DNA of 64,000 nucleotides from Patescibacteria group bacterium (GTDB lineage: Bacteria; Patescibacteriota; Microgenomatia; Levybacterales; GWA1-39-11), in assembly GCA_035549295.1 (NCBI GenBank), contig DASZRG010000039.1:31-64030 (forward strand). The letters are read 5' to 3'. The notes under the pieces are model-generated. The model saw nothing but the letters and a program-made list of their open reading frames with translations, was not told the origin of the DNA and made no database searches. How positions within the stretch are numbered: the stretch's first letter is position 1; every line of letters starts with the position of its first letter. The position numbers were made by a program, and so were the translations under genes. Positions 19,168 through 58,440 of this stretch are shown piece by piece.

Positions 19168-19230
19168 TTAGCGTTTAGCGTTTGGCACTTATTTAAAGCT
19201 ACCAACCCCCAAGAGCTAACAGCTAACTCC
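19168..19230. repeat. dispersed ~70-bp intergenic element with inverted ends (TTAGCGTTTAGC ... ACCAACCCCCAAG ... GCTAACAGCTAA), copy A
   Basis: ttagcgtttagcgtttggcacttatttaaagctaccaacccccaagagctaacagctaa. Confidence 0.55.
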
Positions 19231-19231
19231 A

Positions 19232-20863
19232 TTACTTCTGGTACCCAAGCGTCGGTTTGGTGTTTATGGTTTTAAGAAACTGTGGCTTGATCTCATAGAT
19301 ATCGGCAAACGGATAGTGATTGACAAGTGTATAATCCCCATTTTTATATGCCGCCGTTTTACTCACGAGCTTAAAAGTTTGGTCGTTATTGTCATTTGTA
19401 CGCATAACTATCCATCTAGCCCACCTGTCGGGAGCAGTTGTCGCACTTATCCAGTAGGCGCCCGTTCCTTCGTGTATAAATTTACTCATTGGCAAACCAG
19501 ATGAGAAGATAATAGCATCGTGGGATGCGGCAGAGATCAAAACAAATCCAGGCTTATTTTTAGCATTAGCAGCAAGCCACCCAGAAACCTCAGTAACGTT
19601 TTTCTGACTTGAACCAACTCTCGCATCGTCAATAGTTACTGCATCGGCATTCGCAAATGAAAAGTAAAGAACAAACGCAAGAAGCGCAATAACAATAATC
19701 TTTAATTTATCAATTTTTTGAGTAAGATAGCCTATAAATATGGCAATCGAAGGCATCATGAGAATGCCGTATCGAACATTAAACCAGGTGTTTCCTGATA
19801 AGCCCTGAATAAACAAAACTGATTGTCCAGCATAGAGGGCTATTACGTTAAAAACAAGAGGCACAAAGAGTGCTGTGGCCGCAATTTTTATGTCAGTTTT
19901 TATCTTCTTATCAAGCCACAAAAATGCCGCACCTATTACCGAAAGAACTGAAATAAACGCGTTTGAGTTATATGCAAGTGCAAAAAGATAAACTTTTATT
20001 GAAAATAATAGATCGCCTTTTGTAGGTAGATTTCCAGCCTCAGAAAGCTGCGATTGTTGAGTCGCAGCAGCATAAGGTCCAAAAATAAAGTATAGAGGAT
20101 CTTTGAAGATCAAAAGATTCCACAAGAACCAAAGAGCTATTCCAAGCCCTGCAAGCGTACAAAAAAGAATAACGGTCCCCTCAGCTGCTTTGTATCCCTT
20201 TTTACGGAAGACTTGCAAAGCGATTAGACCGCTTGAGAAAACGAACAAAAACCAACCATCATAACGAATAAGGGTTGCGAGCATAACAAAGAACGCTGCT
20301 TTTATAAGGTGGAGAGTGTCGTCATATTTGAACCATTTAAGAAGCTGGTATATAGACGCCGTCATAGTTGCAATGAGGAGAAGTTCTGTCATTGCGGTCG
20401 ACTGAAGGTAAAGGACATTTAAATTTGCAGCAAAAACAACTACTCCCACAACTCTACCTAGAATTCCCACTCCAAGCTCCTCCAAGAATTTATATATAAG
20501 AAGTCCCGTTGCGACAAAAGATATCATCGAAACAATCGCCCCAGATAAACCTGAATGCCACATAAAATCATTCCAGATAGTCAAAACCATTAGTATGTGC
20601 GGCAAAGGAAGCCACACTGATCCAAGCTGAGCAGCACCAGGTTTCAAACCTTCGACAACACGACGTCCTATATCAAGATGTGACCTTGCATCGTTATATG
20701 CGAGACCTAATCCGTTTTTCAAGAAGAATAAGTAGTAAAATGTTGCCGCTGACACTAGAAGAAAAAGCAAAGCTTCAAATGTATGCTTTTGGACAAACTT
20801 ATTAATCGTACCAATGGTACTTTTATTAAACTCAAACTCTGATAAAAATTTATTCATTTTCAT
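19232..20863 (-). CDS. GT-C fold membrane glycosyltransferase (ArnT/PMT, GT39/GT83-like)
   Basis: About 12 TM helices with an N-terminal loop DARSHLDIGRR and a C-terminal periplasmic domain. The start probably lies at internal Met codons near 20863/20857 rather than 20908, which gives minimal overlap with the upstream ORF. Confidence 0.45.
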   Translation of the reverse strand: MKMNKFLSEFEFNKSTIGTINKFVQKHTFEALLFLLVSAATFYYLFFLKNGLGLAYNDARSHLDIGRRVVEGLKPGAAQLGSVWLPLPHILMVLTIWNDFMWHSGLSGAIVSMISFVATGLLIYKFLEELGVGILGRVVGVVVFAANLNVLYLQSTAMTELLLIATMTASIYQLLKWFKYDDTLHLIKAAFFVMLATLIRYDGWFLFVFSSGLIALQVFRKKGYKAAEGTVILFCTLAGLGIALWFLWNLLIFKDPLYFIFGPYAAATQQSQLSEAGNLPTKGDLLFSIKVYLFALAYNSNAFISVLSVIGAAFLWLDKKIKTDIKIAATALFVPLVFNVIALYAGQSVLFIQGLSGNTWFNVRYGILMMPSIAIFIGYLTQKIDKLKIIVIALLAFVLYFSFANADAVTIDDARVGSSQKNVTEVSGWLAANAKNKPGFVLISAASHDAIIFSSGLPMSKFIHEGTGAYWISATTAPDRWARWIVMRTNDNNDQTFKLVSKTAAYKNGDYTLVNHYPFADIYEIKPQFLKTINTKPTLGYQK

Positions 20864-22334
20864 AATCTTTTTTAGGTGTAAAAATAAAATACGCACCTGC
20901 TGCAACAACCAAAGCTAAAATAACGAAGTAATAAGCGACGGCTGGGATGCTTTTTTGCAAAACAAAGTTATAGAAAAATGAGTCAAGCTCACCCTTCTGA
21001 AGCATTCGAATGTTGATTATGTACCACGAATCAAGATTGATATATCTAGCCTCAACGTAAGGTGGAATAACATTTGTTGTCAGGGGAGCAAGGAGCGAAA
21101 TAGCTGCGCTGTATGTAAAGACCACGATGTATATAATTTTTACTAAAAGATTTTTTGCAAAACGCTGCAGTCCAACCCCAGCAAGAATACAAAGCTCGGG
21201 AAGTACTGCGATCATATATCGAGATCCAAACGCCCATCCACCATATGGATCTCCAAACATTGAATAAAGGACAAGACAAGTTGCAGGTAGAGCGAGTAAT
21301 CCTGCCTCCTCCCATTTTTTACTTTTTTTCAGATACCCTACTCCAAAAATAAATAACAAAACAACTGGTGAGTAAACCAAGATCCCACGGTCATGACTAA
21401 CTGTGAAAGAAGTAAGTCCATTCAGCAAATTCCTAGTTCTCAATGCACCCGTCGCATCAGTTCCTGATTCAGGAGCTGAAAGGTCAGTATTTTTAAGATC
21501 TTTTACTCTTGGAATGGTATTACTAAATTTAAGAGGGCTTCCGAAATGAATATAGTTGTAGTAACCATAAACAGTCATGAGTGCAAGAAATATAATCGGC
21601 GCAAAGATTACAAACCAATTTATTTTTATCTTAAATTTCTCTTTAAACTCTGTAATATTTACCATCTTGAGTGTTGCAAGCCCAACGATAGGCAAGAATA
21701 TAAATAGATTTGGAAAATCGACAAATACCGCCATACTATACAAAAACCAAGCGAGAATAGCCTTTATTCCACGCTTTTTGTCATCAAGCGGCAACACGAC
21801 GAAAAGCCCCAATAAGAGTAGAAATGCTGAAACTAAATGCGCATATAACGTAACCGAATAACCCCACGCGTTTGTTGCAAACCCAAATGCTACTGCTGCA
21901 AATGCTGATATGCTCCAGTGCAAACCAAGTCTCTTTGAGAACAGAAATATCATAATAATTGTCAAAAAGGAGAATATCGTTGAAATTGAAAAAGTGAATA
22001 TCTGAGCTGCTCCAAGTTGAGTTCCCAGAATATACAAAGGAATGGCCATCATAGATACGGCAGGCGGGAAAAAAGAGTAATAGTGACCTTTTAATGCACC
22101 AATGTCAGGCGTTCCCATTGAGGCATAGTTGTCTATCGCAAAAGAATGGTCATTGATAAGTGATAAAATTATTGCGTATCTAGACCTCTCCTGGGACGTT
22201 TCAAAAGCTTGACCAGAAGAATTCTCCTCAAACTCAATTTGATGCGGCGTAGGATTACCTGCTTGTCCACGAAAAGTAAGCGCAAATAAAAACAACGAAA
22301 ATACAACTAAAAATGGAAAAATATACTTTTTCAT
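20850..22334 (-). CDS. GT-C fold membrane glycosyltransferase (ArnT/PMT-like), second paralog
   Basis: 494 aa with many TM helices and a first-loop acidic motif (NDHSFAIDNYASMGTPD), in the typical GT-C arrangement. Confidence 0.45.
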   Translation of the reverse strand: MKKYIFPFLVVFSLFLFALTFRGQAGNPTPHQIEFEENSSGQAFETSQERSRYAIILSLINDHSFAIDNYASMGTPDIGALKGHYYSFFPPAVSMMAIPLYILGTQLGAAQIFTFSISTIFSFLTIIMIFLFSKRLGLHWSISAFAAVAFGFATNAWGYSVTLYAHLVSAFLLLLGLFVVLPLDDKKRGIKAILAWFLYSMAVFVDFPNLFIFLPIVGLATLKMVNITEFKEKFKIKINWFVIFAPIIFLALMTVYGYYNYIHFGSPLKFSNTIPRVKDLKNTDLSAPESGTDATGALRTRNLLNGLTSFTVSHDRGILVYSPVVLLFIFGVGYLKKSKKWEEAGLLALPATCLVLYSMFGDPYGGWAFGSRYMIAVLPELCILAGVGLQRFAKNLLVKIIYIVVFTYSAAISLLAPLTTNVIPPYVEARYINLDSWYIINIRMLQKGELDSFFYNFVLQKSIPAVAYYFVILALVVAAGAYFIFTPKKDYENE

Positions 22335-22336
22335 AT

Positions 22337-24118: not shown

Positions 24119-24119
24119 A

Positions 24120-25013: not shown

Positions 25014-25019
25014 AACGAG

Positions 25020-25628: not shown

Positions 25629-25632
25629 AAGC

Positions 25633-33605: not shown

Positions 33606-33836
33606 TTATTTATTTTTTTTGTTTTTTACAATATGGAATTCGATGAATTTAGAAAGAGAGGATTTTCCGATACGGTAGTGACCGCCAAATTCAATGGCTT
33701 CAAGTTTTTGAGCTCTGATATACTTATATATAGTGAGCTCGGATAGCTTCAAGAGATTCGAGACGTCCTTAACAGTAAGGAAGTCGTTTTCGTTATAATA
33801 TCTCATAGTTTTGGCAAGAATTGTCATATATACCAC
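33606..33836 (-). CDS. excisionase/Xis-family helix-turn-helix DNA-binding protein
   Basis: 76 aa. LTVKDVSNLLKLSELTIYKYIRAQKLEAIEFGGHYRI is a MerR-like HTH_17/excisionase-type domain. It is the first gene of the long minus-strand operon. Confidence 0.55.
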   Translation of the reverse strand: MVYMTILAKTMRYYNENDFLTVKDVSNLLKLSELTIYKYIRAQKLEAIEFGGHYRIGKSSLSKFIEFHIVKNKKNK

Positions 33837-34043
33837 ACTTTTCTCACCTTGTCAATACTATGAGTTACTTTTGTAGGCTATTTTGTTATCTTATAATCTG
33901 CAATTAATCTGAGTTATATTGGGTGATATGAGGTGATGTTGAGTAGTATTTGTCGAAAGTATCACAAGATAGAGATTGCGAATAATGAATAAAGAAGAAT
34001 GAATAATGAAAATGCGATAACTCGTTAACACGCCCACTAGCTA

Positions 34044-34110
34044 TTAGCGTTTAGCAGTTAGCTTTTAGTTAAGAATACCTACCAACCCCCAAGCGCCAAC
34101 CGCCAACCCC
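34044..34110. repeat. same element, copy B (divergent promoter region between the Xis-like gene and typA)
   Basis: ttagcgtttagcagttagcttttagttaagaatacctaccaacccccaagcgccaaccgccaacccc. Confidence 0.55.
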
Positions 34111-34116
34111 TTACAC

Positions 34117-34147
34117 CTGATACCCGTTTTGGGCGATCTGTTATAAT
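34117..34147 (+). promoter_or_regulatory. putative sigma70-type promoter of typA (TGATAC -35-like ... TATAAT)
   Basis: cTGATACccgttttgggcgatctgtTATAATat with ~18-nt spacing, 40 nt upstream of the typA ATG. Confidence 0.35.
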
Positions 34148-34187
34148 ATAGGTCAGCACCGCATTCGCCCATCGCGGTGTTTTATTT

Positions 34188-36002
34188 ATGATAAATATAC
34201 GAAACGTTGCCATTATTGCTCACGTTGACCATGGAAAAACAACCTTGGTTGATGCGCTTCTTAAACAGTCAAAGACGAAGATGCATAAGGATACCGCGGA
34301 ATCCCTTATCATGGACTCAAATGAGCTCGAGCAGGAGCGTGGTATAACCATTTTTTCTAAAAATGCGTCAGTCGTTTTCAACGATACAAAGATAAATATT
34401 ATTGACACCCCAGGCCATGCCGATTTTGGCGGAGAAGTCGAGCGTGTATTAAAAATGGCAGATGGGTGTCTATTGTTGATAGACGCCAAAGAAGGGCCTA
34501 TGCCACAGACTCGTTTTGTTCTCAAGAAGGCTCTTGAAATGAAACATAAGATAATAGTCGTTGTTAACAAAATAGACAAGCCAGACGCAAGAATTCACCA
34601 TGTACTTGATAAGACCCTTGAGCTCTTTTTTGATCTAGGTGCGGATGATGAGGCTGCCGACTTTCCTATAGTCTACGCATCGGCCAAAAACGGCGTCGCC
34701 GGGCTTGAGCCTGATATATCTACGATGTCTGACATAACTCCCGTTTTTGATGCCATTTTGAGCCAAATCCCGGCTCCTACAGGAGATCCTGAAAAACCGC
34801 TTCAAATGCTTGTCACAACACTCTCCTCAGACTCTCACCTTGGGAGAATTGCTATAGGGCGCGTCTATAATGGCCGCATGCGTCAGAGCCAGGAAATCGC
34901 CCAGATTACACGTGAAGGTAATATCAATAAATTCAAGGTAACGTCCCTCATGACCTTTGAAGGTCTAGATCGAGTAACAACCGAAGAGATTAGCGCAGGA
35001 GACATAGTCGCAGTTGCTGGGGTTGCGGATCCTGTCATCGGAGAGACAATTGCCGACCTTCAGAATCCGATTGCGCTTCCGCTTCTTAATATTGAAGAGC
35101 CTACAATTCGTGTAACATTTACGGTTAACAGTTCACCATTTGGTGGTCGTGAAGGTGAATTTAAGACTTCAAGACAGATTGAGGAGAGACTATATAAAGA
35201 GCTAGAGACAGATATGGCGCTACGAGTTGAAAACAATCCCTCGGGTGGATGGACAGTGTCTGGACGTGGAGAGCTTCATTTGGCCATACTCATGGAACGA
35301 ATGAGGCGCGAAGGATATGAATTCCAAGTCGCAAGACCTCAAGTTATTGACCGAGTAATTGATGGTAAGACACTTACGCCGTACGAAAAAGTCTACATCG
35401 AAGTGCCTGAGGAATTTTCGGGAGCGGTTATCCAAAAAATGGGGGAGAGACGCGGAGATTTGAAGGATATGAAAAATGAAAATGGGATAGCATTCATGGA
35501 ATTTGTTATCTCAACTCGTGGTTTATTTGGTTACAGAAGTGAGTTTGTAACCGACACACGAGGTCTGGGAATAATTAACACTCTCTTTTTCGAATACGCT
35601 CCGGATAATGGATTCTCTTATGAGCGCCAACAAGGCTCCATCACAGCATTTGAAACAGGAGTTTCAAATGGTTATGCGATTACGAGCGCCCAAGACCGCG
35701 GTCAACTCTTTATAGGACCTGCTGAAAACGTATATAAAGGTCAAGTTATAGGCCAGAATGCTAGAAGCGAAGATATATCTATTAATATATGTAAAACAAA
35801 AAACCTCACTAATATGAGATCGAAAGGTGAAGGCGTGAATGTCCACGTGAAAGCGCCTCGTCGCATGGGTTTAGAAGACGCATTGGAATATATAGCGGAT
35901 GATGAGCTTGTTGAAATCACTCCAAAGAGCATCCGCATACGAAAAGTAATTCTCGATGAGAATGAAGCACGCCGCCTCAGATCGCAGGGAAAACAAGTAT
36001 AA
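34188..36002 (+). CDS. typA: translational GTPase TypA/BipA
   Basis: VAIIAHVDHGKTTLVDALL, DTPGHADFGGEVER and NKIDKP. 604 aa with EF-G-like domain order. Confidence 0.9.
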   Translation: MINIRNVAIIAHVDHGKTTLVDALLKQSKTKMHKDTAESLIMDSNELEQERGITIFSKNASVVFNDTKINIIDTPGHADFGGEVERVLKMADGCLLLIDAKEGPMPQTRFVLKKALEMKHKIIVVVNKIDKPDARIHHVLDKTLELFFDLGADDEAADFPIVYASAKNGVAGLEPDISTMSDITPVFDAILSQIPAPTGDPEKPLQMLVTTLSSDSHLGRIAIGRVYNGRMRQSQEIAQITREGNINKFKVTSLMTFEGLDRVTTEEISAGDIVAVAGVADPVIGETIADLQNPIALPLLNIEEPTIRVTFTVNSSPFGGREGEFKTSRQIEERLYKELETDMALRVENNPSGGWTVSGRGELHLAILMERMRREGYEFQVARPQVIDRVIDGKTLTPYEKVYIEVPEEFSGAVIQKMGERRGDLKDMKNENGIAFMEFVISTRGLFGYRSEFVTDTRGLGIINTLFFEYAPDNGFSYERQQGSITAFETGVSNGYAITSAQDRGQLFIGPAENVYKGQVIGQNARSEDISINICKTKNLTNMRSKGEGVNVHVKAPRRMGLEDALEYIADDELVEITPKSIRIRKVILDENEARRLRSQGKQV

Positions 36003-36293
36003 AGTATTAAGCAATTACTTTTTAGTGATTAAGACTAAAGGAATTAGTGATTAAGATAATTGACTAATCACTTTAATCTTTTAATCCTAATCACTAGTAG
36101 AGACTTCTAGTATCTCGCATTCTCTTTATTAATTTAACCTAGTACATAAGGACCTAGTACTTAGTGCGCAGTTAAGTACAATAATTAACTACGAACTATG
36201 TTCTATTTCCTGCGTACTAGAGAGTTGCTCTTGATACTTTTGATACCCTTCACTATACTCTCCTTATACTTATCCGAGAGGAGGTGATATTAG

Positions 36294-37446: not shown

Positions 37447-37674
37447 AGAATGTATCACGAGTTTAATACTACAAATAAGCAAAGTTCAATTAAGCAAATT
37501 AATCTATAAATGAATCAATGGATAAATTTATATTTAGAATTTTATACATTTAACAATTTAGAATTCATTTGAACTTTATCATTTGCATATTTGATTACTA
37601 AGATTGGCAGTGTTACCCATCTTAACTTTCTCCCCCGCACCTTTTCCAAAACCCTAGTATCTAATATCTAGTTT

Positions 37675-37902: not shown

Positions 37903-37991
37903 AGAGAAATTATATCACCCCCCAACCTCCCAAACTTCCCCAACTACCCTAACTCTTGAAAATAACCTCTTCGGAAATGTAGAATCATAAT

Positions 37992-39212: not shown

Positions 39213-39371
39213 CGCGTTTGCGTGTTAACGAGTTCAATATTTAAAAATTCCAAATTTCTAATAGCTAGTTACTAATCAAGTTTTAATAAATTAACAAATT
39301 ATCAATTTCTATTTTTTAGAAATTAAAAATTAGTAATTAGAAATTCCAACGATGCTCTGATACCCTATGAC

Positions 39372-40395: not shown

Positions 40396-40466
40396 TAGTG
40401 TCATTCTGAACTTGTTTCAGAATCTCATGTCTGAAACCCCGGATCAAGCCCGGGGTGACAAAAAGT
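40396..40466. repeat. dispersed ~65-bp hairpin element, copy 1 (gtcattctgaa..ttcagaatctcat..cccggatcaagcccggg..tgaca); supplies the stop codon and last 4 codons (SPRA*) of the DegT gene
   Basis: Near-identical to copy 2 at 41617-41685. It has nested inverted repeats. In gene-sense RNA it forms CCCCGGGCUUGAUCCGGGG followed by UUU, which is terminator-like. Confidence 0.6.
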
Positions 40467-41610
40467 TATTAATAATTGTGCAGATACGCATCGCATCCTT
40501 TTCCCGCACATTAATATGCGTGGGCAGGTTGACTATTATTTTCGAGTCGGCAACGGCGTTTGGACATTCTGGTGCAACATCAACATACCAAATATCCTCA
40601 AGATAAATCCCCTGCTCTTTTAGTTTTTTTAGGAGTTTGCTTCTCTGTTCGACAAAAATTGGGAACCGCAAGTTTGATGACAGCTTAACTGCTTCCAAAG
40701 TTTTTTGCTTGTCAAACATAAACATGGAGTCAGAAAGCTCCTCGACATATATCGAAGCAATTTTTCTTCTATGCGATAACTGCTCTGATAGCGTCTTAAA
40801 CTGAAATACCGCAAGTGATGCATTCCATGAAGGCAACGAATAATACTCATACAGAGATTCATCCATGATATTTGATAAAAATCCCATTTTCTTTAACAAA
40901 AAATGATAAGCCTTACCAAGCCCCACACCATACATTTCCCTAATTTTGTAAGTAAAACTAGGATAAAACCTCTCCCTTAATCCGCCTGCATTTTTTTGAT
41001 ATTTGATATTTGATATTTGATATTTGATATTCCTAACAACTACCGCTCCTCCCGATACCGCATCAATTATCTTGTCTTGGCTAAAAGAAAGGACTACAAA
41101 ATCGCCAACAGTCCCCGCCTCTTTTCCATTTTTATACTTCGCGCCAATACAATGAGCAAGATCCTCTATCAAGATCAGCTTATGCTCTTTACATATTTTT
41201 TGAATTTCCTCAATATTACATGGGTATCCAAGCGTATTCTGCACAACAACCGCCTTTATTTTTTTATTCATCCTTAAAGACTTCAGGAGACCTTCAGGTG
41301 TGAAATTTAAACCACCGGTCTCTTCTAGATCGATGCAAACAGGCTCAGCTCCCGCGGTTCTAATAGCATTAAAAACCGCAACGCATGTAAAGCCATTTAT
41401 CGCAATTTCAGCATCTTCGGGTAAATCGAGCGCTTTGATTGTTGCCGTTAAAGCCTCTCGCCCCTTGTAAAACAAAGTGGCTTTCCCGCCATATTTTTCC
41501 TCAAGAAGATTTGTAAGCTTGTTTTTATCAGAAGCAGAACCAACGGTCGCAAGGGACTTTAGAACATATGATAAATTGTAATTTGATCCTAACGAATTAA
41601 ATATCGCCAT
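40444..41610 (-). CDS. DegT/DnrJ/EryC1/StrS-family PLP-dependent aminotransferase
   Basis: GFTCVAVFNAIRTAGAEPVCIDLEE...LAHCIGAKYKNGKEAG...DFVVLSFSQDKII. It contains an internal 7-bp tandem repeat and a repeat-derived C-terminus. Confidence 0.75.
   Translation of the reverse strand: MAIFNSLGSNYNLSYVLKSLATVGSASDKNKLTNLLEEKYGGKATLFYKGREALTATIKALDLPEDAEIAINGFTCVAVFNAIRTAGAEPVCIDLEETGGLNFTPEGLLKSLRMNKKIKAVVVQNTLGYPCNIEEIQKICKEHKLILIEDLAHCIGAKYKNGKEAGTVGDFVVLSFSQDKIIDAVSGGAVVVRNIKYQISNIKYQKNAGGLRERFYPSFTYKIREMYGVGLGKAYHFLLKKMGFLSNIMDESLYEYYSLPSWNASLAVFQFKTLSEQLSHRRKIASIYVEELSDSMFMFDKQKTLEAVKLSSNLRFPIFVEQRSKLLKKLKEQGIYLEDIWYVDVAPECPNAVADSKIIVNLPTHINVREKDAMRICTIINNFLSPRA
40998..41031. repeat. heptanucleotide tandem repeat (gatattt) x~5 inside the DegT coding sequence
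   Basis: The DNA reads tttttttGATATTTGATATTTGATATTTGATATTTGATATTcc. It encodes NIKYQISNIKYQ on the minus strand. The 7-bp unit is not a multiple of 3. Confidence 0.7.
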
Positions 41611-43630: not shown

Positions 43631-44073
43631 TTGAATTTATTATACCAAGAACTACTAAAACAATGTCATTGCGAGCGAGCAAACGAACGCAGTGAAGTAC
43701 AGCGAAGAGAAGCAATCTCAGGTTATTCGATTTTCGGTTACGATGCCAGTATCGTTAGCAGGTCTACGTTAAACGTATGACTTAACCGATACGGGCCTCG
43801 CTACCTTACACCACAACCAATTAAAATTAGCCCGTAATACACGTGATACCCGTTATGCACTTGATACTCTTAATCACTTATTCTTTTACTGGTATACCGG
43901 TATATAAGTAATAAATGTGACCCAGCCTACAAATATATTTTAATACTAGTATACATGTATACCTGTGGCAATTAGCTCATGATACTCTTGATACTCGTGG
44001 TACCCTTGATACTCTTGGTACTTCTAAACTCCCTCTTGATTTACTCCCCGCGCTTCAACTATATTAGATACTT

Positions 44074-44598
44074 ATGAATGACGAAGATGTTGTAGCGGCC
44101 GAAGAAGAAATAGAGACCCAAAGCGATACAATCGAGACTCCAGAGGAAATGATTCAAGAAGGCCAAGTTGTTGGAGCTGATATCCCAGATTCAACTATGA
44201 CGGGCTCCTCAAGCGCAATGGTACTTGAAAGCCTTGAAAGCCTTATTCGCGAAAATCTGGCTAAAACTGACAAGCTCAATATCGAGCTCAATCAGCAGAA
44301 AGAAATGCTTGACTCGGTCCTTGAGAATGACGAGACATACAAGCTCCATTCAGAAGCCGCCAAGCAAGCTGCAAAGGTAAAAAGCTCAACAAAAAGTGAA
44401 ATAATAAAAAGGCCAGAAGTTGCTCATGTTGCTAGAAAAGTTCAAGATATTTCAACCGAAATTAAAGAAATCAAAGATTCGATGAATTCCTATCTCCAGG
44501 AATACCAGAGACTCTCAGGAAGCAATGAGATAGATGATGCCAACGGTGAACCAATGCAAATCATCTCCTCCGTTAAATTAGTTAAACGCCGCCCATAA
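44074..44598 (+). CDS. hypothetical acidic coiled-coil protein
   Basis: 174 aa, with an N-terminal Glu/Asp-rich low-complexity segment and a heptad-like middle region. Confidence 0.3.
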   Translation: MNDEDVVAAEEEIETQSDTIETPEEMIQEGQVVGADIPDSTMTGSSSAMVLESLESLIRENLAKTDKLNIELNQQKEMLDSVLENDETYKLHSEAAKQAAKVKSSTKSEIIKRPEVAHVARKVQDISTEIKEIKDSMNSYLQEYQRLSGSNEIDDANGEPMQIISSVKLVKRRP

Positions 44599-44603
44599 TT
44601 TTT

Positions 44604-44672
44604 GCATTTAGCAGCTAGGGGTTGGCAGTTAGTTTTATTACTAACACCCAAAAGCCAAGCGCTAAACCCTAA
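44604..44672. repeat. same element, copy C (inverted orientation; convergent gene ends)
   Basis: gcatttagcagctaggggttggcagttag...ccaagcgctaaaccc contains ggggttgg, the reverse complement of ccaacccc. Confidence 0.45.
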
Positions 44673-44675
44673 AAA

Positions 44676-45266
44676 TCATTTTTTTGCGAGTACAAGCGTC
44701 CATGCGAAGGGGGCTTTTGACGCAGAAATTTTGTAGTGGTTTTTCCTCAAAAAGCTTTTAAACCCAGGGTTGGTCCAATGGTTAATATGCTCGGGATGAT
44801 TTCCGAATCTTGTTATATATTGACCTCGGGCAAGATGAGCAAGCATGAAAAACGGTTCGTTCGGAACAGAGAACACAACATATTTACTCGTTACACGCCT
44901 CAACTCTTTTACCGCGGCGGCAGGATCTTCTAAATGCTCCAAGACTTCCGTGCAGATAAGTAAATCAAATGAATTGTCTTTATAAGGAAGCTTGTAAATG
45001 TCTCCAATTTTTATGTTTATATTCGGATACTGTTTTTTACCTATCTTTATCGCATCTTCAGAATTGTCTACACCCTCATAGCTTTTACCAATTTTTGCGC
45101 GAGATAGCCTCACAATCGTGATGCCCTCCCCGCAACCAACATCCAGGATCTTGACAGGCCTTACGGGTTTTAAGGTTTTGAAAAGTTGACGGTAGAAATT
45201 GTCAATAAGAAGACGCTGAATTGGGTTCTTGGATGAGTGTTTTGTGTAGTTTGTCGTCTCAGGCAT
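44676..45266 (-). CDS. class I SAM-dependent methyltransferase
   Basis: Motif I is KILDVGCGEGITIV and the post-I acidic residue is in YEGVDNSE. About 196 aa. Confidence 0.7.
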   Translation of the reverse strand: MPETTNYTKHSSKNPIQRLLIDNFYRQLFKTLKPVRPVKILDVGCGEGITIVRLSRAKIGKSYEGVDNSEDAIKIGKKQYPNINIKIGDIYKLPYKDNSFDLLICTEVLEHLEDPAAAVKELRRVTSKYVVFSVPNEPFFMLAHLARGQYITRFGNHPEHINHWTNPGFKSFLRKNHYKISASKAPFAWTLVLAKK

Positions 45267-47791: not shown

Positions 47792-47843
47792 CTCGTGATA
47801 CACTTGGTACCCTTGATACTCGTGATGCTTTTGACTAACTCGG

Positions 47844-48946: not shown

Positions 48947-50872
48947 ATGACCGATATTGTCCTATTAAAAAATGCCACCGAAGTTGGAACTTTTGGAGGC
49001 AAGGCAGTGAATCTTGCAAAACTATTGAACGCGGGACTTCCTGTACCAAACGGTTTTGCGGTTGGACTTGGCGCATTCGGACCTGATGGCAAACTGTTCG
49101 CTGGGGCTAAAGAAGAAATAAGCAAACTTACCAAAGACCAGCCTTATGCAGTTCGATCTTCTGCTACTGCTGAAGACGCTGAAAATTCTTCCTGGGCCGG
49201 CCAATTCGAAACATTCCTCAATGTAAAGCCAAGTGACTTGATTTCAAATATCGAAAAATGTCACGCATCGGCAAAAATAAGAGCTAAATCATACGCAGAT
49301 CAAAAGGGTGAGAAAGCAGTATTCCAAGTTGCCGCTGTAGTACAAGAAATGCTAAATCCTGAGTACGCTGGCGTACTATTTACCAAAGACCCTATCTCAG
49401 GCGAGAGTAAATTTGCTACTGAATATATCGAGGGTCTTGGCGAGGAATTAGTAAGTGGTCGAGCTGACCCAAAGCAAATTAGTTGGCAGAAAGACAAAAT
49501 GCCTGACGCACCTTTTGATGTCAAGCAATTGAGCGAATTGGCTAAAAAGACAGAGAAACTCTTTGGCGAGCCGCAGGATATAGAATGGGTTTGGGCGGAT
49601 AATAAAATTTGGCTAGTACAGGCTCGTCCAATTACAACAAAAGGGGGAATCAACAATGGTTATTATCTAGGTGAACCAGATGATCTTTTTTACTGGGGAC
49701 CATCCCGAGCAAAACCACTCTATATGAGCGACTACATGCAAGCAGTTGAAAATTTTCTTCTCGAGTCGTCATTTCATAAAAACTTACCCAAACCACCCAA
49801 GACACTAGTTTTATTCCATGAGGGAAAAATGGTATGGCTAAATAATGCACATGCATTTGTCGAATTTGTAGAGAAGGTCTTCGAAGCCTATGAATTAAAA
49901 AATCGAATTGAAGAGGATATAAAAGCATGGCAAAATTCCATCGAAATATTGCCAACTCTAAAAGGTGAACACTTCAAAAAAGAGCTACTAAAGGCATGGA
50001 AATTGACTTTATTTGCGGAATTTTCGCTATATGGCGCAGATAGCGTGATAACCAGACGCTTAAGTCGCTTCGATGTTGCAACTCGACAAAAAATTTTTGG
50101 GACTTTTACCATACCAGATAAACAAACATTTCTGACCAGGATTGATGAAGAGTTACTCGAGTCGAAAGATCCACAAAGCCTATCCAAGAAGTACCCATGG
50201 ATAAATGACGGTTATGATGGTGTACACGATACTGCCGAAAGTTATTTTGCAGATAGACTCAAGATTTTGCTTCAAGATAACACGAACAGCCATCTATCAA
50301 AACCAGATAAGTCGGCTCTCGAACACGAATTTTCTTTAAGCGGTGAAGAAATTAAGGTTTTGACTCTAACAAGAAGGTTAGCAGAATTTATGGATGATAG
50401 AAAGGAGTGGATGATGAAAACACGCAGATTAATAGAAGAGTTTTCGATATACATTGAGCATGGATGGATGCTTGACGACGGTAAAGCATCAAAAATAGAT
50501 GAAGCAAATACAACAGACCTGTGGCAACGCTATATAAATTTCAAAGGGTCTACAAATGCAGTTACCGGCATCGTTGCGAGCAATGGAGGACGACATTTTG
50601 TAACGGGTGAGATTGTGATCGTTTCAGGTCCGACAGATACGGTTGCAAGCGGCATGATTCTAGTCGTTCCATCTACAAGCCCAAGCTATGTCCCCCTTAT
50701 GAGGAGTGCAAAAGCACTTATCACAGACCATGGCGGCATGATGTCTCATGCGGCTATTGTCGCGCGCGAGTTCGGTCTACCATGTATTGTAGGCACAAAA
50801 CACGCAACAAAAGTCCTAAAAACAGGCGATAAAGTAGTCCTGGATCTCGTCAAAGGCGAAGTCAATAGATAA
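48947..50872 (+). CDS. PEP-utilizing enzyme (PEP synthase / rifampicin-phosphotransferase-like: N-terminal ATP-grasp PPDK_N domain + C-terminal phospho-His swivelling domain)
   Basis: N-terminal segment GGKAVNLAKLLNAGLPVPNGFAV. C-terminal segment GGRHFVTGEIVIVSG...DHGGMMSHAAIVAREFGLPCIVG. Confidence 0.75.
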   Translation: MTDIVLLKNATEVGTFGGKAVNLAKLLNAGLPVPNGFAVGLGAFGPDGKLFAGAKEEISKLTKDQPYAVRSSATAEDAENSSWAGQFETFLNVKPSDLISNIEKCHASAKIRAKSYADQKGEKAVFQVAAVVQEMLNPEYAGVLFTKDPISGESKFATEYIEGLGEELVSGRADPKQISWQKDKMPDAPFDVKQLSELAKKTEKLFGEPQDIEWVWADNKIWLVQARPITTKGGINNGYYLGEPDDLFYWGPSRAKPLYMSDYMQAVENFLLESSFHKNLPKPPKTLVLFHEGKMVWLNNAHAFVEFVEKVFEAYELKNRIEEDIKAWQNSIEILPTLKGEHFKKELLKAWKLTLFAEFSLYGADSVITRRLSRFDVATRQKIFGTFTIPDKQTFLTRIDEELLESKDPQSLSKKYPWINDGYDGVHDTAESYFADRLKILLQDNTNSHLSKPDKSALEHEFSLSGEEIKVLTLTRRLAEFMDDRKEWMMKTRRLIEEFSIYIEHGWMLDDGKASKIDEANTTDLWQRYINFKGSTNAVTGIVASNGGRHFVTGEIVIVSGPTDTVASGMILVVPSTSPSYVPLMRSAKALITDHGGMMSHAAIVAREFGLPCIVGTKHATKVLKTGDKVVLDLVKGEVNR

Positions 50873-50890
50873 TATGCGTCAACTCAGCTC

Positions 50891-50956
50891 TTAGCGTTTA
50901 GCAGTTAGTAAAATCACCAACCTGCTGCAAGTACCAATCGCAAACCCTTAACAGCC
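50891..50956. repeat. same element, copy D (convergent gene ends between the PEP-enzyme gene and rarA)
   Basis: ttagcgtttagcagttagtaaaatcaccaacctgctgcaagtaccaatcgcaaaccc. The first 18 nt are identical to copy B. Confidence 0.55.
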
Positions 50957-51019
50957 AGGAATCTCCCTAATACCTTATACCAGACACTTGATACCCACGA
51001 TACTGAATACTGATGCGGC

Positions 51020-52267
51020 TTACTTCCAGTCCTCCTTATAGTACTTCTTCCCCACAAGATTCTTTGGCATATATTCTTGATCTACTTTTTCACCAGTCTC
51101 GCGTTCTACTTTCCAGGTATACCTAATGTGCCCCTTTCCGTAGTCGAGCTTTTTCATAACTTTGTTTGCCGCGTTTCGTAGGTGAAGAGGTATAGGATCC
51201 AAATTTTCTTCGTCGATGTCAGCCATCGCCTCACCTATTCCGACAGTCGATGCAATAGACTTTTTGGCAGTAGCAAGGTATGTTGCTGTTTGGGCCAGAA
51301 TGAGCTGCGCCTCAGGCATTCCTATCATGTTTACCGCTTGCATACATGCTGTTGCAAGCACCATTGCGGTTGGCTGGGCATTCCCTACATCTTCAGAGGC
51401 AAAAATAAGCATACGTCTTGCAATAAACATCGGGTCTTCGCCAGCCTTCAACATACGAGCAAGATAATGAAGCGTGGCATCTGGCTGACTGCCACGCATT
51501 GATTTTATAAATGCTGATATAGTGTCGTAATGCCAATCCCCTTTTTTGTCATAAAAAATTGCTTTTTGCTGAACAGCAAGTTCTGCTGTCTTGAGATCTA
51601 CCTTTTTACTTATCGATGCCGCGAGCTCTACAGCATTTATAGCTGTACGAGCGTCACCATTTGACTGATTTATAACGTGAGCAATAGCATCCTTGGACCA
51701 TTTTGATTTGGTTTCCCTTATTGCGCGATCAACTATTGCTTCAAGCTCTTCGTTCGATAAAGAATTCAGAACATACACCTGCGAACGAGAAATAAGGGGA
51801 GCATTTACACGAAATCCAGGATTTTCTGTGGTTGCTCCAATCAAAATTATCGTGCCATCCTCAACGCTTGGCAGAAATGCATCCTGTTGAGATTTGTTAA
51901 AGCGATGTATTTCGTCAACAAACAATACGGTCTGCTGCTGCTCGAGTCCACGTCGAAGATTTTTTGCATCATCTATCACGCGGCGGACATCCGCCACTCC
52001 ACTCGTAACAGCTGAAAAGGATACAAATGCAGCATCAATATAATTGGCGATAAGTGATGCTAGGGTCGTCTTACCAACTCCAGGAGGTCCCCAGAGGATC
52101 ATGGAGGTAACTTTTCTGTTCTCAATCATCCGCCTAATAGGGCGCCCTTCACCCAACAGATGTTGTTGCCCAATATAGTCTTCAATCTTTTGTGGCCTCA
52201 ATTTTTCGGCGAGAGGAACTGTTGTATTTGTCATCCTGGATACGTATATTCTAACATGCATGCTCAA
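51020..52267 (-). CDS. rarA: replication-associated recombination protein A (AAA+ ATPase)
   Basis: Walker A is ILWGPPGVGKTTLASLIA and Walker B is LFVDEIHRFNKSQQDAFLP. MgsA C-terminal region (~415 aa). Confidence 0.85.
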   Translation of the reverse strand: MSMHVRIYVSRMTNTTVPLAEKLRPQKIEDYIGQQHLLGEGRPIRRMIENRKVTSMILWGPPGVGKTTLASLIANYIDAAFVSFSAVTSGVADVRRVIDDAKNLRRGLEQQQTVLFVDEIHRFNKSQQDAFLPSVEDGTIILIGATTENPGFRVNAPLISRSQVYVLNSLSNEELEAIVDRAIRETKSKWSKDAIAHVINQSNGDARTAINAVELAASISKKVDLKTAELAVQQKAIFYDKKGDWHYDTISAFIKSMRGSQPDATLHYLARMLKAGEDPMFIARRMLIFASEDVGNAQPTAMVLATACMQAVNMIGMPEAQLILAQTATYLATAKKSIASTVGIGEAMADIDEENLDPIPLHLRNAANKVMKKLDYGKGHIRYTWKVERETGEKVDQEYMPKNLVGKKYYKEDWK

Positions 52268-53446: not shown

Positions 53447-53519
53447 GGGCCTATAGCTCATTTGGTAGAGCGCCTGCATGGCATGTAGGAGGTGAGGGGT
53501 TCGAGCCCCCTTAGGTCCA
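53447..53519 (+). tRNA. tRNA-Ala (anticodon GGC)
   Basis: The acceptor GGGCCTA/TAGGTCC carries the G3-U70 Ala identity pair. The D-arm is GCTC-ATTTGGTA-GAGC. The anticodon arm is CCTGC-ATGGCAT-GTAGG. The T-arm is AGGGG-TTCGAGC-CCCCT. The discriminator is A. Confidence 0.8.
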
Positions 53520-54650: not shown

Positions 54651-54673
54651 AAGGGTAATTTTATATTTTCCTG

Positions 54674-55429: not shown

Positions 55430-55820
55430 AAAACTCTATATTGTGTTTTTCTATCGTAAATTTAGTATTCGTCTGAATCTTTTCTTCTTGCGTTTTAAAA
55501 ATAAAATCAAAATCATCAAGGTCCTCTACTCGTCCGCAACTCAAACACACTATATGGTGGTGATGGTTTTTTGTTTTTAGCTCATATCTCTTTTTACCAT
55601 CGCCAAACTCTATCTCAATCACAATATTCTGACACTTCAGAAAATCTAGTTCACGATATATGGTTGTTTTATTCGCTGAAAGATCTTTCTTGTAAAGATT
55701 AGTGATGATCTCACTAACAGATAGTGGCTTTTGGGTAGAGTTTAGAATTGAAAGTATCGAATCACGAATCTTGGTAACTCTAAATCCTTTATTTTTGAGA
55801 TCAATGCTGTTTTTATTCAT
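55401..55820 (-). CDS. Fur-family metalloregulator (Zur/Fur-like)
   Basis: RVTKIRDSILSILNSTQKPLSVSEIITNL...TIYRELDFL...HHHHIVCLSCGRVEDLD...CNTCQ. The start is taken at the internal Met (55820) because the upstream palindromic operator would otherwise lie inside the ORF. It overlaps the ZIP gene by 29 nt. Confidence 0.7.
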   Translation of the reverse strand: MNKNSIDLKNKGFRVTKIRDSILSILNSTQKPLSVSEIITNLYKKDLSANKTTIYRELDFLKCQNIVIEIEFGDGKKRYELKTKNHHHHIVCLSCGRVEDLDDFDFIFKTQEEKIQTNTKFTIEKHNIEFFGLCNTCQN

Positions 55821-55821
55821 T

Positions 55822-55862
55822 TTGCAACTTGGTTGCATTTAGTATATGCAACTCAGTTGCAC
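55822..55862. promoter_or_regulatory. two tandem 7-3-7 palindromes (TTGCAAC ttg GTTGCA / ATGCAAC tca GTTGCA), candidate Fur-family operator
   Basis: They lie directly upstream of the inferred start of the Fur-family gene in the fur-ZIP-yibEF operon. Confidence 0.4.
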
Positions 55863-55986
55863 TTGTCAACCCGCAATTCATAATGGCGCCTTGAGTTCGA
55901 GTATGAAAATAGTTAAAATATACAATCAAGCTTTTTAGAAGTTTGGTTAGTTTGTTGTTTTCGTTAATTTGTTAATTGTCGGACTA

Positions 55987-56058
55987 CGGGGTGTAGTTCA
56001 TCGGTAGAACGCTCGCTTTGGGAGCGAGAAGTAGCAGGTCCAATTCCTGTCACCCCGA
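55987..56058 (+). tRNA. tRNA-Pro (anticodon TGG)
   Basis: The acceptor is CGGGGTG/CACCCCG. The D-arm is GTTC-ATCGGTA-GAAC. The anticodon arm is CTCGC-TTTGGGA-GCGAG. The T-arm is GCAGG-TCCAATT-CCTGT. The discriminator is A. Confidence 0.75.
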
Positions 56059-56082
56059 CAAACAAGTTCAAGATGATAGTTT

Positions 56083-56640
56083 TTATACCTCTTCCGATCT
56101 TCGAGGAATAAACCTTGATAGAATCAATCCGTTTTGTCCAGCCTGCATGCTAAGATTACTCACCCTTGGCAATCCAAATCTAACGGGCGCCACGTAACCC
56201 TCGCCCTCCCAAAAGCTTTGTAAAATTCCCATACCGTAAGTGACGTTGTAAGAAACAACGTCTTCTGGTTGATATCGATCTGATTTTAAGTCTAGTGCTA
56301 ACTGTTCATTCGGCGCAAGACAAACAATTTCTAACTCCCCAGCTTCAGCATCTATGCTGAATCTTTCTGGATCATATTCACGTCTAGTAACCGGGGCATT
56401 CAATCCCACTTCTATAATAAGGTTTGGAAAAGTTGTCGAACCCAAAAAAGTTCTTGGATTTTTGCCATCATCCTTTTCAGAGGCAACTTTAAAATCTTTA
56501 AAACCAAAATAATGAGCTTTCACATTCGGTACCTTGGGAATCATAGGCTCTTTTACTCCCAAGCCGTCAGGTCCTGGAAATCCGTTATACTCAACGACTA
56601 ATTCTTTTTCCGGTGCAAAAGACTCTGTTTCAGTTGCCAT
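56083..56640 (-). CDS. hypothetical protein
   Basis: 185-aa ORF lying between tRNA-Pro and tRNA-Gly. No recognised motif. Confidence 0.35.
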   Translation of the reverse strand: MATETESFAPEKELVVEYNGFPGPDGLGVKEPMIPKVPNVKAHYFGFKDFKVASEKDDGKNPRTFLGSTTFPNLIIEVGLNAPVTRREYDPERFSIDAEAGELEIVCLAPNEQLALDLKSDRYQPEDVVSYNVTYGMGILQSFWEGEGYVAPVRFGLPRVSNLSMQAGQNGLILSRFIPRRSEEV

Positions 56641-56740
56641 AGAGTGTATCTTAATAGCTTGCAGGAATCATGTCAAATAAGACGAGGAGCGGGCAGCCCA
56701 CCTTTGGTGTCTAGCTTCGCTCAAATTTTTGAACAATTTG

Positions 56741-56812
56741 AGCGGGATACCGGATTCGAACCGGTGACCTCCTCCTTGGAAGGGAGGCATTCTACCACTG
56801 AACTAATCCCGC
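56741..56812 (-). tRNA. tRNA-Gly (anticodon TCC)
   Basis: Reverse complement GCGGGAU-UA-GUUC-AGUGGUA-GAAU-G-CCUCC-CUUCCAA-GGAGG-AGGUC-ACCGG-UUCGAAU-CCGGU-AUCCCGC-U. The discriminator is U, as is typical for tRNA-Gly. Confidence 0.8.
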
Positions 56813-56904
56813 AATAGCATAACATTATATCAGTTAGGAAAGCCCACCTCAAGAAACTCAAACAATTCAGATTATTTGCTTATTAAGTTTGCTATACTTT
56901 TTCC

Positions 56905-58020
56905 ATGGGGAAGGAGTTTAAGAATTTATTTCTCTTCTATACTTCTTATCAGTGGTTTAACAGGATTAGCACTGCTATTCTGCCTACTATATTTCTGGCC
57001 TCAAATCTTACACTTCAAGAAATGGTCTTTGGTATTGCGCTCTGCTTTACTGCTCAGTCCCTCTTGCTTCTATTTGTTAGAAAGCTTTCTTCAAAACTAT
57101 CTTGGAAGATTGCCCTTATTTGTGTTGCTATATATATCTGTCTAATTATATCCATCAAGTCGCCGCTTCAATTCTATCTGGGCTCATCTATAAATGGCTT
57201 TGCGTTGTTTTTCTTTTTTGTTGTCTACAACATTGCTCATTTTGCAAATACGCCAAAACGCAAGCGCGGTCACAGCTCAGCCCTTATGTTTGCAATTCCA
57301 AGCGCAATTGGTGTAGTCGCGCCAATTATTGCAGGGTTTTTCGCGCAACTTAACGTCACTTATCTCTGGGCCATTTCTTTAGCATCCTTCATCCTTTCCT
57401 TCTCGTTTATAAACAGACAAGAAGATTTTAAGGTCAATATTGATATTAGAAAATCTCTCAACTCTATTGAGGCAACTAGGGCTCTAATTTTCATAGAAGG
57501 CGTATGGGAAGCTTTAATATTCGCAGTGATACCCATTTACACACTGTATTTTATCCAAAAACCCCTTAACTACGGAGTCTTTGCTTCATACCTCGCTGTG
57601 CTCAGCGTTATCGCAAACCTAACACTTGGAAGATTGACGGACAAGCTTCAGAAAAGAAGTGTCTTCTTATTTCCTCTGACAATCATCATGGGAGTGGCAA
57701 CCACACTCTTCGCTGTATTTCCACAAAACCTAACCTATTGGATAATAATGACTGGTGTTATTCAATTTCTGCTTCCTCTTTTCTGGAATCTTACCATGGC
57801 TATGGTTGTCGATTCTCACGCAAATCTTAAATTAGCCATTCCGGGACGTGAAATTTTACTTGCAGCGGGGAGAACACTAGGCGCAAGTTTTGTAATAGTG
57901 AGTCTTTGTCTTGAACCCTACCCTCACTACATTTTTATACTACTCGGTATTATCATGTTCGCATTCACAGGAGTTCTGTATTACAACAAGCACCTCACAA
58001 AACGCCACAGCTACCTTTAA
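56905..58020 (+). CDS. MFS transporter
   Basis: 371 aa with ~12 TM helices in a 6+6 arrangement. Confidence 0.55.
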   Translation: MGKEFKNLFLFYTSYQWFNRISTAILPTIFLASNLTLQEMVFGIALCFTAQSLLLLFVRKLSSKLSWKIALICVAIYICLIISIKSPLQFYLGSSINGFALFFFFVVYNIAHFANTPKRKRGHSSALMFAIPSAIGVVAPIIAGFFAQLNVTYLWAISLASFILSFSFINRQEDFKVNIDIRKSLNSIEATRALIFIEGVWEALIFAVIPIYTLYFIQKPLNYGVFASYLAVLSVIANLTLGRLTDKLQKRSVFLFPLTIIMGVATTLFAVFPQNLTYWIIMTGVIQFLLPLFWNLTMAMVVDSHANLKLAIPGREILLAAGRTLGASFVIVSLCLEPYPHYIFILLGIIMFAFTGVLYYNKHLTKRHSYL

Positions 58021-58154
58021 TAATCAGTAACCAAATTCCAATTAACAAACCAATTTTTAAAATCAAAACTGAAAAAACGATTTCTTAATTTAGAATTGAA
58101 AATTTGTTAATTGGTTTGATCAATTGGTAACAGGATATTGGTAAATTCTAGCTA

Positions 58155-58331
58155 CTAAATTCCGAGTGCTCCTGTCACGAGGAAATGATAGAGGATGTAA
58201 GCAATTGCTATCAGAACTACAGCTATCAATATGGGGCGAATAAAGTCGACGAGATATGTGAAAGCCATAAAAAGAAGGCTTATTATGACAATAATAACTA
58301 TTACTCTCAATAAATTCGGATCAATGATCAT
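58155..58331 (-). CDS. small hydrophobic membrane protein (58 aa, below the ORF-track cutoff)
   Basis: Reverse-complement translation MIIDPNLLRVIVIIVIISLLFMAFTYLVDFIRPILIAVVLIAIAYILYHFLVTGALGI*. Confidence 0.25.
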   Translation of the reverse strand: MIIDPNLLRVIVIIVIISLLFMAFTYLVDFIRPILIAVVLIAIAYILYHFLVTGALGI

Positions 58332-58374
58332 TGGTATTATTTAACACAAATTTACAAACTAATGTCAACTGGGG

Positions 58375-58440
58375 TTAGCATTTAGGTTTTAGCTCTTGGT
58401 TCAATTTCTAACACCTAACCCCCAAAACCCAACGCCAAAA
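58375..58440. repeat. same element, copy E (upstream of gdhA)
   Basis: ttagcatttaggttttagctcttggttcaatttctaacacctaacccccaaaacccaacgccaaaa. Confidence 0.5.

Follow-up and report, generated by a model that had tools for sequence, protein, structure and literature searches.

One question raised by a 64,000-nt stretch of contig DASZRG010000039.1 (Patescibacteria group bacterium, assembly GCA_035549295.1; the whole stretch analysed is hereafter called the window) is whether five short sequences dispersed between its genes form a true repeat family and, if so, what kind of element they represent. An initial annotation had described five copies of a ~70-nt element with inverted termini and had likened them to repetitive extragenic palindromic (REP) structures or to MITEs (miniature inverted-repeat transposable elements). 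Taken jointly, our results probably reflect a lineage-specific, non-coding family of REP-like hairpins, which was copied into gene spacers and has drifted there with a neutral or mild effect on the host. The five copies were found at the positions given for them, all of them were intergenic and no sixth was detected in the window. Their limits, arms and gene contexts are as follows.

Copy 1, 19161..19230, plus strand: the left arm TTAGTTT-TTAGCGT-TTAGCGT-TTGGCAC (19161-19188) is followed by the loop and by the right arm (19202-19228, plus strand), which reads CCAAC/CCAAG/CTAAC/CTAAC at 7-nt spacing; the element takes up nearly all of the 81-nt gap from the stop of gene 19232-20908(-) to the start of gene 17900-19150(-).

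Copy 2, 34037..34110, plus strand: left arm (CTAGCTA)-TTAGCGT-TTAGCAG-TTAGCTT-TTAGTTA and right arm CCAACCC-CCAAGCG-CCAACCG-CCAACCC, between the divergent HTH_17 gene 33606-33836(-) and bipA, 34188-36002(+); its end is followed after 6 nt by the -35-like box CTGATA and after about 30 nt by the extended -10 TGTTATAAT.

Copy 3, 44597..44678, orientation ambiguous: nearly palindromic, with A/T runs on both sides, filling the 77-nt gap between the convergent genes 44074-44598(+) and 44676-45266(-).

Copy 4, 50884..50956, plus strand: the most degenerate copy, with left arm TCAGCTC-TTAGCGT-TTAGCAG-TTAGTAA and a decayed right arm, between the convergent genes 48947-50872(+) and 51020-52267(-); CTTGATACY-type 9-mers follow at 50987-51011.

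Copy 5, 58371..58443, plus strand: left arm GGGGTTAGCA-TTTAGGT-TTTAGCT-CTTGGTT, right arm CTAACAC-CTAACCC-CCAAAAC-CCAACGC-CAAAA; the promoter-like site TTGCAT-17-TAAAAT of the glutamate dehydrogenase gene (start 58499) lies about 20 nt downstream.

The mixture of gene contexts described initially was confirmed: copy 1 is located between tandem minus-strand genes, copy 2 between divergent genes, copies 3 and 4 between convergent genes and copy 5 between tandem plus-strand genes.

Each element consists of a left arm of three to five degenerate heptamers, (TTRGCNN)3-5, a loop of 10-25 nt and an inverted right arm, (CYAASNN)3-5. This 7-nt periodicity, which was missed in the initial annotation, is the defining anatomical feature of the family. 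Period-7 arrays were located by Tandem Repeats Finder at 19167-19183 and 34082-34108, and five such arrays were observed in the window against 0.2 expected, a 25-fold excess. The "core" previously set apart as a module, ACCAACCCCCAAG, is made of inner units of the periodic right arm (CCAAC-CC-CCAAG-AG-CTAAC-AG-CTAAC). The arms are indeed inverted relative to each other, with complementarity at 4-5 constant positions per heptamer unit, but each arm is a tandem array whose number of heptamers differs among copies and which has no fixed terminus, so that they fit discrete terminal inverted repeats (TIRs) poorly. Exact strings are shared less widely than first described. Only copies 2 and 4 carry the unaltered 18-mer TTAGCGTTTAGCAGTTAG, the 12-mer TTAGCGTTTAGC stands unchanged in copies 1, 2 and 4, and both ACCAACCCCCAAG and GC(T/C)AAC(A/C)GC(T/C)AA (the GCYAACMGCYAA segment) are exact solely in copies 1 and 2.

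The five copies form a degenerate family, with pairwise identities of 51-77%. Every copy was detected in leave-one-out searches, in which nhmmer was run with a model of the remaining copies (E = 3.8e-11, 5.3e-11, 6e-8, 8e-5 and 5.8e-5, the last two for copies 4 and 5, respectively), and the next-best match in the window had an E value of about 1. The motif TTAGCNNTTAGC, with at most one mismatch, was observed 19 times in the window against 5.3 expected and was clustered at the five sites, and the pattern TTAGSNTTTAGSNNTTRGN{10,40}CYAACCCC matched four of the five copies and none of 100 shuffled sequences. These three results agree in placing the density of the element above chance, as had been proposed. 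Positions outside the heptamer period are shared as well: copies 1 and 2, for example, have TACCAACCCCCAAG in common, copies 2 and 4 the 18-mer, and copies 3 and 5 CTAACACC. Common descent of the copies is favoured because such non-periodic positions are shared, because orthologous sites are empty and because sister lineages show bursts of near-identical copies (see below).

The predicted fold is a long interrupted hairpin of short helices and small internal loops, for which several pairing registers are possible. On the G/U-rich strand the RNAalifold consensus contained 20 pairs in three to four helices, most of them invariant or switching between G-C and G-U. Copy 3 folded best (-30.7 kcal/mol, z -3.5 against shuffles) and, together with the minus strand of copy 1 (z -2.3), gave the single-copy folds that were clearly better than those of shuffled sequences. 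This copy had been reported as inverted; its orientation is ambiguous because the element is nearly palindromic (28.6 bits on the plus strand and 23.2 bits on the minus strand in the leave-one-out search). In four of the five copies the G/U-rich strand gives the better fold, and the GC skew is negative throughout the window; a strand-specific function suggested by this G-U asymmetry and skew was considered and set aside, the signal not being decisive with five near-palindromic copies. Stop codons close the three frames of the left arm within 18-25 nt in four copies, and all six frames are closed in four of the five elements, as against 31% of the other intergenic 72-mers. At the gathering threshold, Rfam matched five tRNAs in the window and nothing at the elements.

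The corresponding sites were compared in related genomes (loci from relatives are designated here by L numbers). Around copy 1, between the genes for 543-aa and 416-aa proteins, gene order is kept through to the sortase gene, and the junction measures 1 nt in L206, 210 nt in L207, where it is occupied by unrelated periodic repeats, and 81 nt in the window. Upstream of bipA no element was present in L002 or L003, though both carry the same extended -10 and leader hairpin. At the site of copy 3, where the orthologous methyltransferase gene ends, L041 has a short hairpin with a 4-nt loop, ATGATTTT-GTTA-AAAATCAT, and the window reads ATGATTTTT-(about 62 nt of element)-AAAAATTAT. Copy 3 thus seems to have entered a small hairpin at its loop, as judged from one alignment of orthologues with 71% protein identity. 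A profile of the five copies found no match in 1.25 Mb from 80 other genomes of the candidate phyla radiation (CPR). The element sites are therefore dispensable, orthologous junctions being either empty or occupied by unrelated repeats.

The bipA leader itself also deserves mention. An extended -10 (TGNTATAAT), a short G+C hairpin and a T-run precede the start codon in the window (34139-34187), in L002 (9945-10000) and in L003 (6860-6905), and this arrangement may be a conserved leader or an attenuator.

Other origins for the sequences were tested and discarded. BLAST of the copies against plasmid and phage collections returned partial chance matches and nothing similar, and a 26-place match in a Pseudanabaena plasmid was a false lead, located in a cas gene/CRISPR region. 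An affinity with the STRR and SDR repeats (short tandemly repeated repetitive sequences and small dispersed repeats) of cyanobacteria, suggested by the heptamers, was rejected on the grounds that the flanking proteins belong to Patescibacteria/Levyibacteriota. The BipA protein of the window is 82-86% identical to proteins from metagenome-assembled genomes (MAGs) of Patescibacteria and Candidatus Levyibacteriota, and one flanking protein has a 100% identical twin annotated as 'Patescibacteria group bacterium', with the next-best match at 62% identity.

Elements of the same kind were encountered in sister lineages. A pattern scan of metagenomes returned at least 120 loci and served only as a route to the low-GC contigs L090, L163 and L170. 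As proof of a universal class the scan was rejected, since the pattern itself forces TTAG.../...AACCCC; 23 of the matches were nothing more than telomere-type TTTAGGG arrays, and the complementarity not imposed by the pattern exceeded a permuted control only modestly. In L090, L163 and L170 the elements exactly fill gaps of 65-85 nt between co-directional genes. The L170 locus is the tuf-S10-spc ribosomal operon, and its EF-Tu is nearest to proteins labelled Levyibacteriota, Saccharimonadales or Patescibacteria. The same operon was compared in six contigs with EF-Tu proteins 95-99% identical and operons of 72-83% nucleotide identity. The content of elements, L170 included, was the following.

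L215: compact operon with gaps of 1-48 nt and zero elements.

L170: about 3-5 elements.

L210: about 11 elements belonging to three families.

L216: 11-12 elements.

L217: 6 elements.

These sister elements measure 65-96 nt and reach from the stop codon almost to the following start, leaving 3-14 nt ahead of the ATG, and they replace the spacer that contains the Shine-Dalgarno (SD) sequence in the compact operon. The stop codon of the upstream gene often lies inside the first unit of the element (L170, L210, L216), and the end of the L29 gene reads gagagcgtaTAG in L210 as against gaggagaaaTAG in L215. At the S14>S8 junction L170 has an AGCGT type, L210 an AGTGA type, L217 TTAGTGC/CTAAGAA and L213 yet another hairpin. 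Different families thus stand at the same junction across lineages, that is, there has been turnover. The six copies of L217, 66-76 nt long, are 80-97% identical to each other, and therefore recent copying is indicated. The sister elements fold strongly (z -4.6 to -5.3), and no Rfam match was obtained in L210, L170 or L213. Local hopping was also considered, in which neighbouring copies would be most alike, and was not upheld, since the effect was slight (0.88 vs 0.86 and 0.81 vs 0.76).

The families of the window and of the sister operons were then related by profile searches in both directions. The profile of the L210/L170 'AGCGT' family ranked the five window sites at the top (E 1.4e-4 to 0.6), as did that of the L216 family (E 2e-5 to 0.3), and the window profile matched elements of L217, L216 and L170 with E values down to 5e-6. 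The unit common to all of them is TTAGCGT/ACGCTAA. We take this as one superfamily of TTAG-heptamer hairpins in a Levybacteria-like clade. The window copies are a modest, degenerate family, and the colonisation of the ribosomal operon in sister CPR lineages is a wider picture that was new to us.

Beside the elements of this operon, a spacer of 230-290 nt between rpsJ and rplC (S10>L3) is conserved in L210, L211, L213, L215 and L170 (e.g. L210 11555-11823). It contains shared blocks and a terminator-like hairpin (GATAGCC...GGCTATC TTTTTTT), gave no Rfam match, and may be an operon leader RNA or a small open reading frame.

Given their distribution, the elements probably behave as small mobile DNA rather than as conserved regulators, being either mobile or locally copied. 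An ancestral sequence would have been copied into short spacers, such as stop-to-start junctions, convergent gaps and positions just upstream of promoters. The arms would then have drifted by point mutation and by slippage-driven gain or loss of 7-nt units, and such drift would account for the differing numbers of units, the uncertainty in the pairing register and the identities of 51-77%. Once in place, the element would be co-transcribed with its neighbours and would fold as a long interrupted hairpin, better on the G/U-rich strand. Its TAG/TAA heptamers would stop all frames within about 20 nt and may even supply the stop codon, so that an insertion at a gene end would cost little because incoming frames are terminated at once. 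The elements may be tolerated because any incoming frame ends in them and because they fold back on themselves. For the host the effect would probably be neutral or mild, for example that of a transcript-end or intercistronic hairpin, by analogy with REP sequences and BIMEs (bacterial interspersed mosaic elements). Target-site duplications (TSDs), for which a check had been proposed, were found neither at the five window copies nor at the six L217 copies. This absence, together with the hairpin nature of the elements, would point to an enzyme acting on single strands or hairpins (a Y1 transposase, RAYT-like or of the IS200 type), or else to template switching or gene conversion. No transposase, integrase or Y1_Tnp domain was present in the Pfam lists for the genes of the window and its 67.5-kb contig.

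Several observations weigh against this interpretation. The copy count and the absence of an autonomous partner hold for the 64 kb of the genome that was analysed. No close relative of the species is present in the databases (the next flanking-protein match being the one at 62%), and for this reason insertion polymorphism of the window family was not directly seen and the evidence for mobility comes from the sister families. The window copies are old or degenerate, and four of the five fold only about 1-2.3 standard deviations below shuffled sequences. The covariance analysis that had been suggested lent the fold no real support: RNAalifold counted three compensatory changes, and the covariation term was +1. 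In L210, L216 and L217 all copies are inside the operon and none was found in the 4-10 kb upstream, a concentration which could also mean a selected intercistronic function. The contigs L210 and L211, which come from separate samples, show 99% identity as far as position 15087 and 86% beyond it, the switch falling exactly at an intercistronic hairpin element; this may represent recombination or a strain-chimeric assembly at the repeat. Finally, the link between the window and the sister elements rests mainly on the shared TTAGCGT/ACGCTAA unit, which could be a product of convergence.

A bolder version of the copied-hairpin interpretation would define a hitherto undescribed CPR class of mobile hairpins made wholly of stop-bearing heptamer arrays, which would home to stop-start junctions and further very short spacers without TSDs, close all frames, carry an A-rich tail before the AUG and in this way colonise even the ribosomal operon, with a mover that might be host-encoded or specific for single strands; the window family would be an older, decaying branch. 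We regard this version as tentative and somewhat doubtful.

The alternative that survives best, although it is unlikely, is that a protein or the ribosome reads the arrays, which would be cis-regulatory sites selected as modules between cistrons or in 5' or 3' untranslated regions. A candidate reader would be an RNA-binding protein specific for NAG triplets spaced 7 nt apart; HutP binds (UAGNNNN)3, and S1-, Csp- and CsrA-type binders are said to have been proposed for the TAACTGA arrays of other bacteria. In agreement with such a role, UAG recurs at an exact 7-nt period three to four times per arm, and the sister elements always end 3-14 nt short of the AUG, take the place of the SD spacer and concentrate in the ribosomal operon. 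Translational control was also argued for the similarly placed TAACTGA heptamers (MacGregor 2015, PMC4679880). However, the same junctions lack elements in lineages of similar divergence (L215; L206), non-homologous families occupy one and the same junction, and the window copies are found in every context, including a divergent promoter region. In addition, neither HutP nor TRAP, nor any other candidate binder, was found in the Pfam lists of the window genes.

Quite unlikely is a function-first explanation in which the sequences are transcription terminators or transcript-end stabilisers that resemble each other through convergent selection. Copies 3 and 4 do lie between convergent genes, copy 1 follows a stop codon, and copy 3 forms a long hairpin with T-runs flanking it on both strands. 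Canonical terminators are not enriched in the window (17 terminator-like sites vs 14.0 expected and 24 vs 14.9, near the shuffled expectation), so that another signal might serve in their place. Scans with sigma-70-like and terminator-like consensus sequences found no site overlapping the element hairpins and window counts at background; the nearest terminator-like site, 19245-19260, lies just beyond copy 1, within the neighbouring gene. Against a terminator function, copy 2 is in a divergent promoter region, copy 5 is 355 nt past the upstream gene and just before a promoter, and copy 3 alone among the five has flanking T-runs, that is, a U-tract. Moreover, the sister elements are found inside the ribosomal operon, where termination would be harmful, and most other 3' ends in the window carry no element.

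The lack of common descent is very unlikely. The elements would then be heptamer microsatellites grown in place by slippage, with arms generated through quasi-palindrome template switching, and the likeness between loci would reflect a genome-wide mutational preference. This would fit the over-representation in the window of period-7, -8 and -9 arrays of several other units, which are also present at other CPR loci, and the differences in unit number and pairing register among copies. An excess of bacterial heptamer simple sequence repeats (SSRs) is moreover known (Rehm et al. 2015, PMC4692102, citing Mrazek 2007). Slippage, however, cannot produce six copies of 66-76 nt at 80-97% identity as in L217, and the window copies share positions outside the period and are recovered as whole elements by leave-one-out models.

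Bacterial MITEs (Correia/NEMIS, RUP, Nezha) are small, non-autonomous, intergenic, co-transcribed and strain-variable, with inverted ends, and they have defined TIRs, TSDs and a parent insertion sequence (IS). A classical MITE, i.e. a deletion derivative of a DDE transposon with TIRs that is moved in trans and makes TSDs, is highly improbable here, since the ~70-nt size, inverted ends, intergenic multi-copy distribution and lineage-dependent occupancy that would suggest it are set against flanking direct repeats lacking at both the window copies and the young L217 copies, ends made of tandem arrays that stop at no fixed point, the absence of any transposase from the window and from the sister loci of some 20 kb, and no defined TIRs, TSDs or parent IS found for the window elements within the 64 kb.

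Therefore, of the two likenesses originally proposed, the REP-like one stands (multi-copy, intergenic imperfect palindromes with hairpin folds, absent from orthologous junctions and multiplied in related families), whereas the strict MITE does not. The REP, BIME and REPIN (REP doublet forming hairpin) sequences of Proteobacteria are associated with RAYTs (REP-associated tyrosine transposases; Bertels & Rainey 2011, PMC3116915). Like REP sequences and REPINs, the window elements are short imperfect palindromes in multiple copies, extragenic and often intercistronic, lack TSDs, would give hairpin transcripts and belong to lineage-specific families. They differ from them in their host, an ultra-small CPR bacterium, in arms built of tandem 7-nt units and not of a unique 20-40-nt palindrome, in lacking an invariant GTAG at their 5' end and in that no RAYT gene was found among the genes of the 64-kb window. 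The elements are also unlike Rho-independent terminators, as no site with a short G+C-rich stem-loop and a U-tract overlaps their hairpins.

Two heptamer systems offer the other half of the comparison. In Xanthomonas and Nostoc the heptamers GGGAATC and GGGGAYT are repeated 2-26 times at about 100-200 intergenic sites; the arrays are transcribed and preferentially near stop or start codons, and in Xanthomonas 70-75 convergent array pairs are able to form stem-loops (Rehm et al. 2015, PMC4692102). The TAACTGA direct repeats of Beggiatoaceae, Cyanobacteria and Bacteroidetes overlap upstream stop codons, lie a few nt before SD-less starts and occur inside ribosomal protein operons, and mobility has been suspected for them (MacGregor 2015, PMC4679880). 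As in the arrays of Xanthomonas, Nostoc and Beggiatoa, a tandem 7-nt unit (TTAGCNN, 3-5 times) is present at several intergenic sites (five in the window). The units of Xanthomonas and Nostoc are G-rich and form G-quadruplexes, whereas those of the window are degenerate and without G-tracts, inverted pairing being the rule instead of a property of a subset; the TTAGCGT unit has no G3 tract, and single GGGGG runs occur only on the complement of the right arm. With the TAACTGA arrays the elements share a stop-bearing 7-nt unit that closes all three frames, and the sister elements abut both stop and start codons; those arrays, however, are direct repeats with a single indirect case, and in the CPR elements the arrays come as inverted pairs that form hairpins, with a unit particular to each lineage. 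The SDR and STRR of Nostocales, reportedly described by Elhai et al. in 2008, are said to be very small repeats with heptamer tandem arrays and hairpins and to have no known transposase; they would differ from the CPR elements in phylum and in sequence. The CPR elements combine two themes, a REP-like hairpin and arms of stop-bearing heptamers, and appear from their sequences to be a new family.

CPR/Patescibacteria genomes are regarded as streamlined and repeat-poor, and in literature searches on small dispersed or heptamer repeats, including one aimed at Patescibacteria/CPR, we found no description of REP-like or heptamer-array repeats from CPR. In sister lineages, families related to that of the window stand in as many as a dozen of the gaps between cistrons of the most conserved operon, while another sister stays compact. 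This offers a comparative system for the spread of TSD-less hairpin repeats and for the translation of a downstream cistron when a hairpin of 70-90 nt replaces the SD spacer. MAG assemblies are also likely to break into strain chimeras at such repeats, as may have happened at the L210/L211 switch.

Repeats are unusually frequent between the genes of this small genome, and small hairpin repeats make up about 5% of the intergenic DNA in the Levybacteria-like genome. The following repeat lies outside the five-copy family.

36020..36098, orientation unassigned: separate hairpin repeat of a similar kind, with arms TTAGTGATTAAG... / ...TAATCACTA, 18 nt past the bipA stop.

This hairpin weakly resembles the 'family B' ('AGTGA') of L210 and is the top match of that model in the window (E 0.02).

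Arrays of the 9-mer CTTGATACY were found on the plus strand at six intergenic sites (653-688, 36230-36247, 43842-43868, 43978-44022, 47794-47826 and 50987-51011), with single units at 34116 and 39356. Several of these arrays are just upstream of plus-strand genes, where TTGATA could be a -35 box, and two come after convergent gene ends; a CTTGATACY unit follows three of the five TTAGC elements. C-rich periodic tracts at 37915-37957 and 692-702 (CCCCAACYT x4; CCCCTAACCCC) lie directly upstream of -35-like boxes and resemble the right arm of the element without its left arm. Other short-period intergenic hairpins and arrays are located at 39240-39345, 58030-58150, 37500-37600 and 552-622, and the units in this set are AATTTCTAAT/TTAGAAATT, CCAATT/AATTGG, AT-rich ones and the heptamers GTCTACT and CTTAATA.

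Heptamer SSRs are common in CPR. Long perfect arrays were seen in L073 (11813-11889, GTATTAA x11, directly past bipA), L041 (18144-18186, GAATTTT x5) and L048 (4851-4890, CAAATCT x5). Inside a window gene, the heptamer TTTGATA, which reads ATATCAA on the coding strand, is perfectly repeated 5.3 times at 40992-41033. The gene, 40444-41610(-), is for a DegT/EryC1-type aminotransferase and belongs to a surface-sugar cluster, and the repeat encodes ...RNIKYQISNIKYQK... The gain or loss of one unit would shift the reading frame, and this repeat is therefore a candidate phase-variable site.

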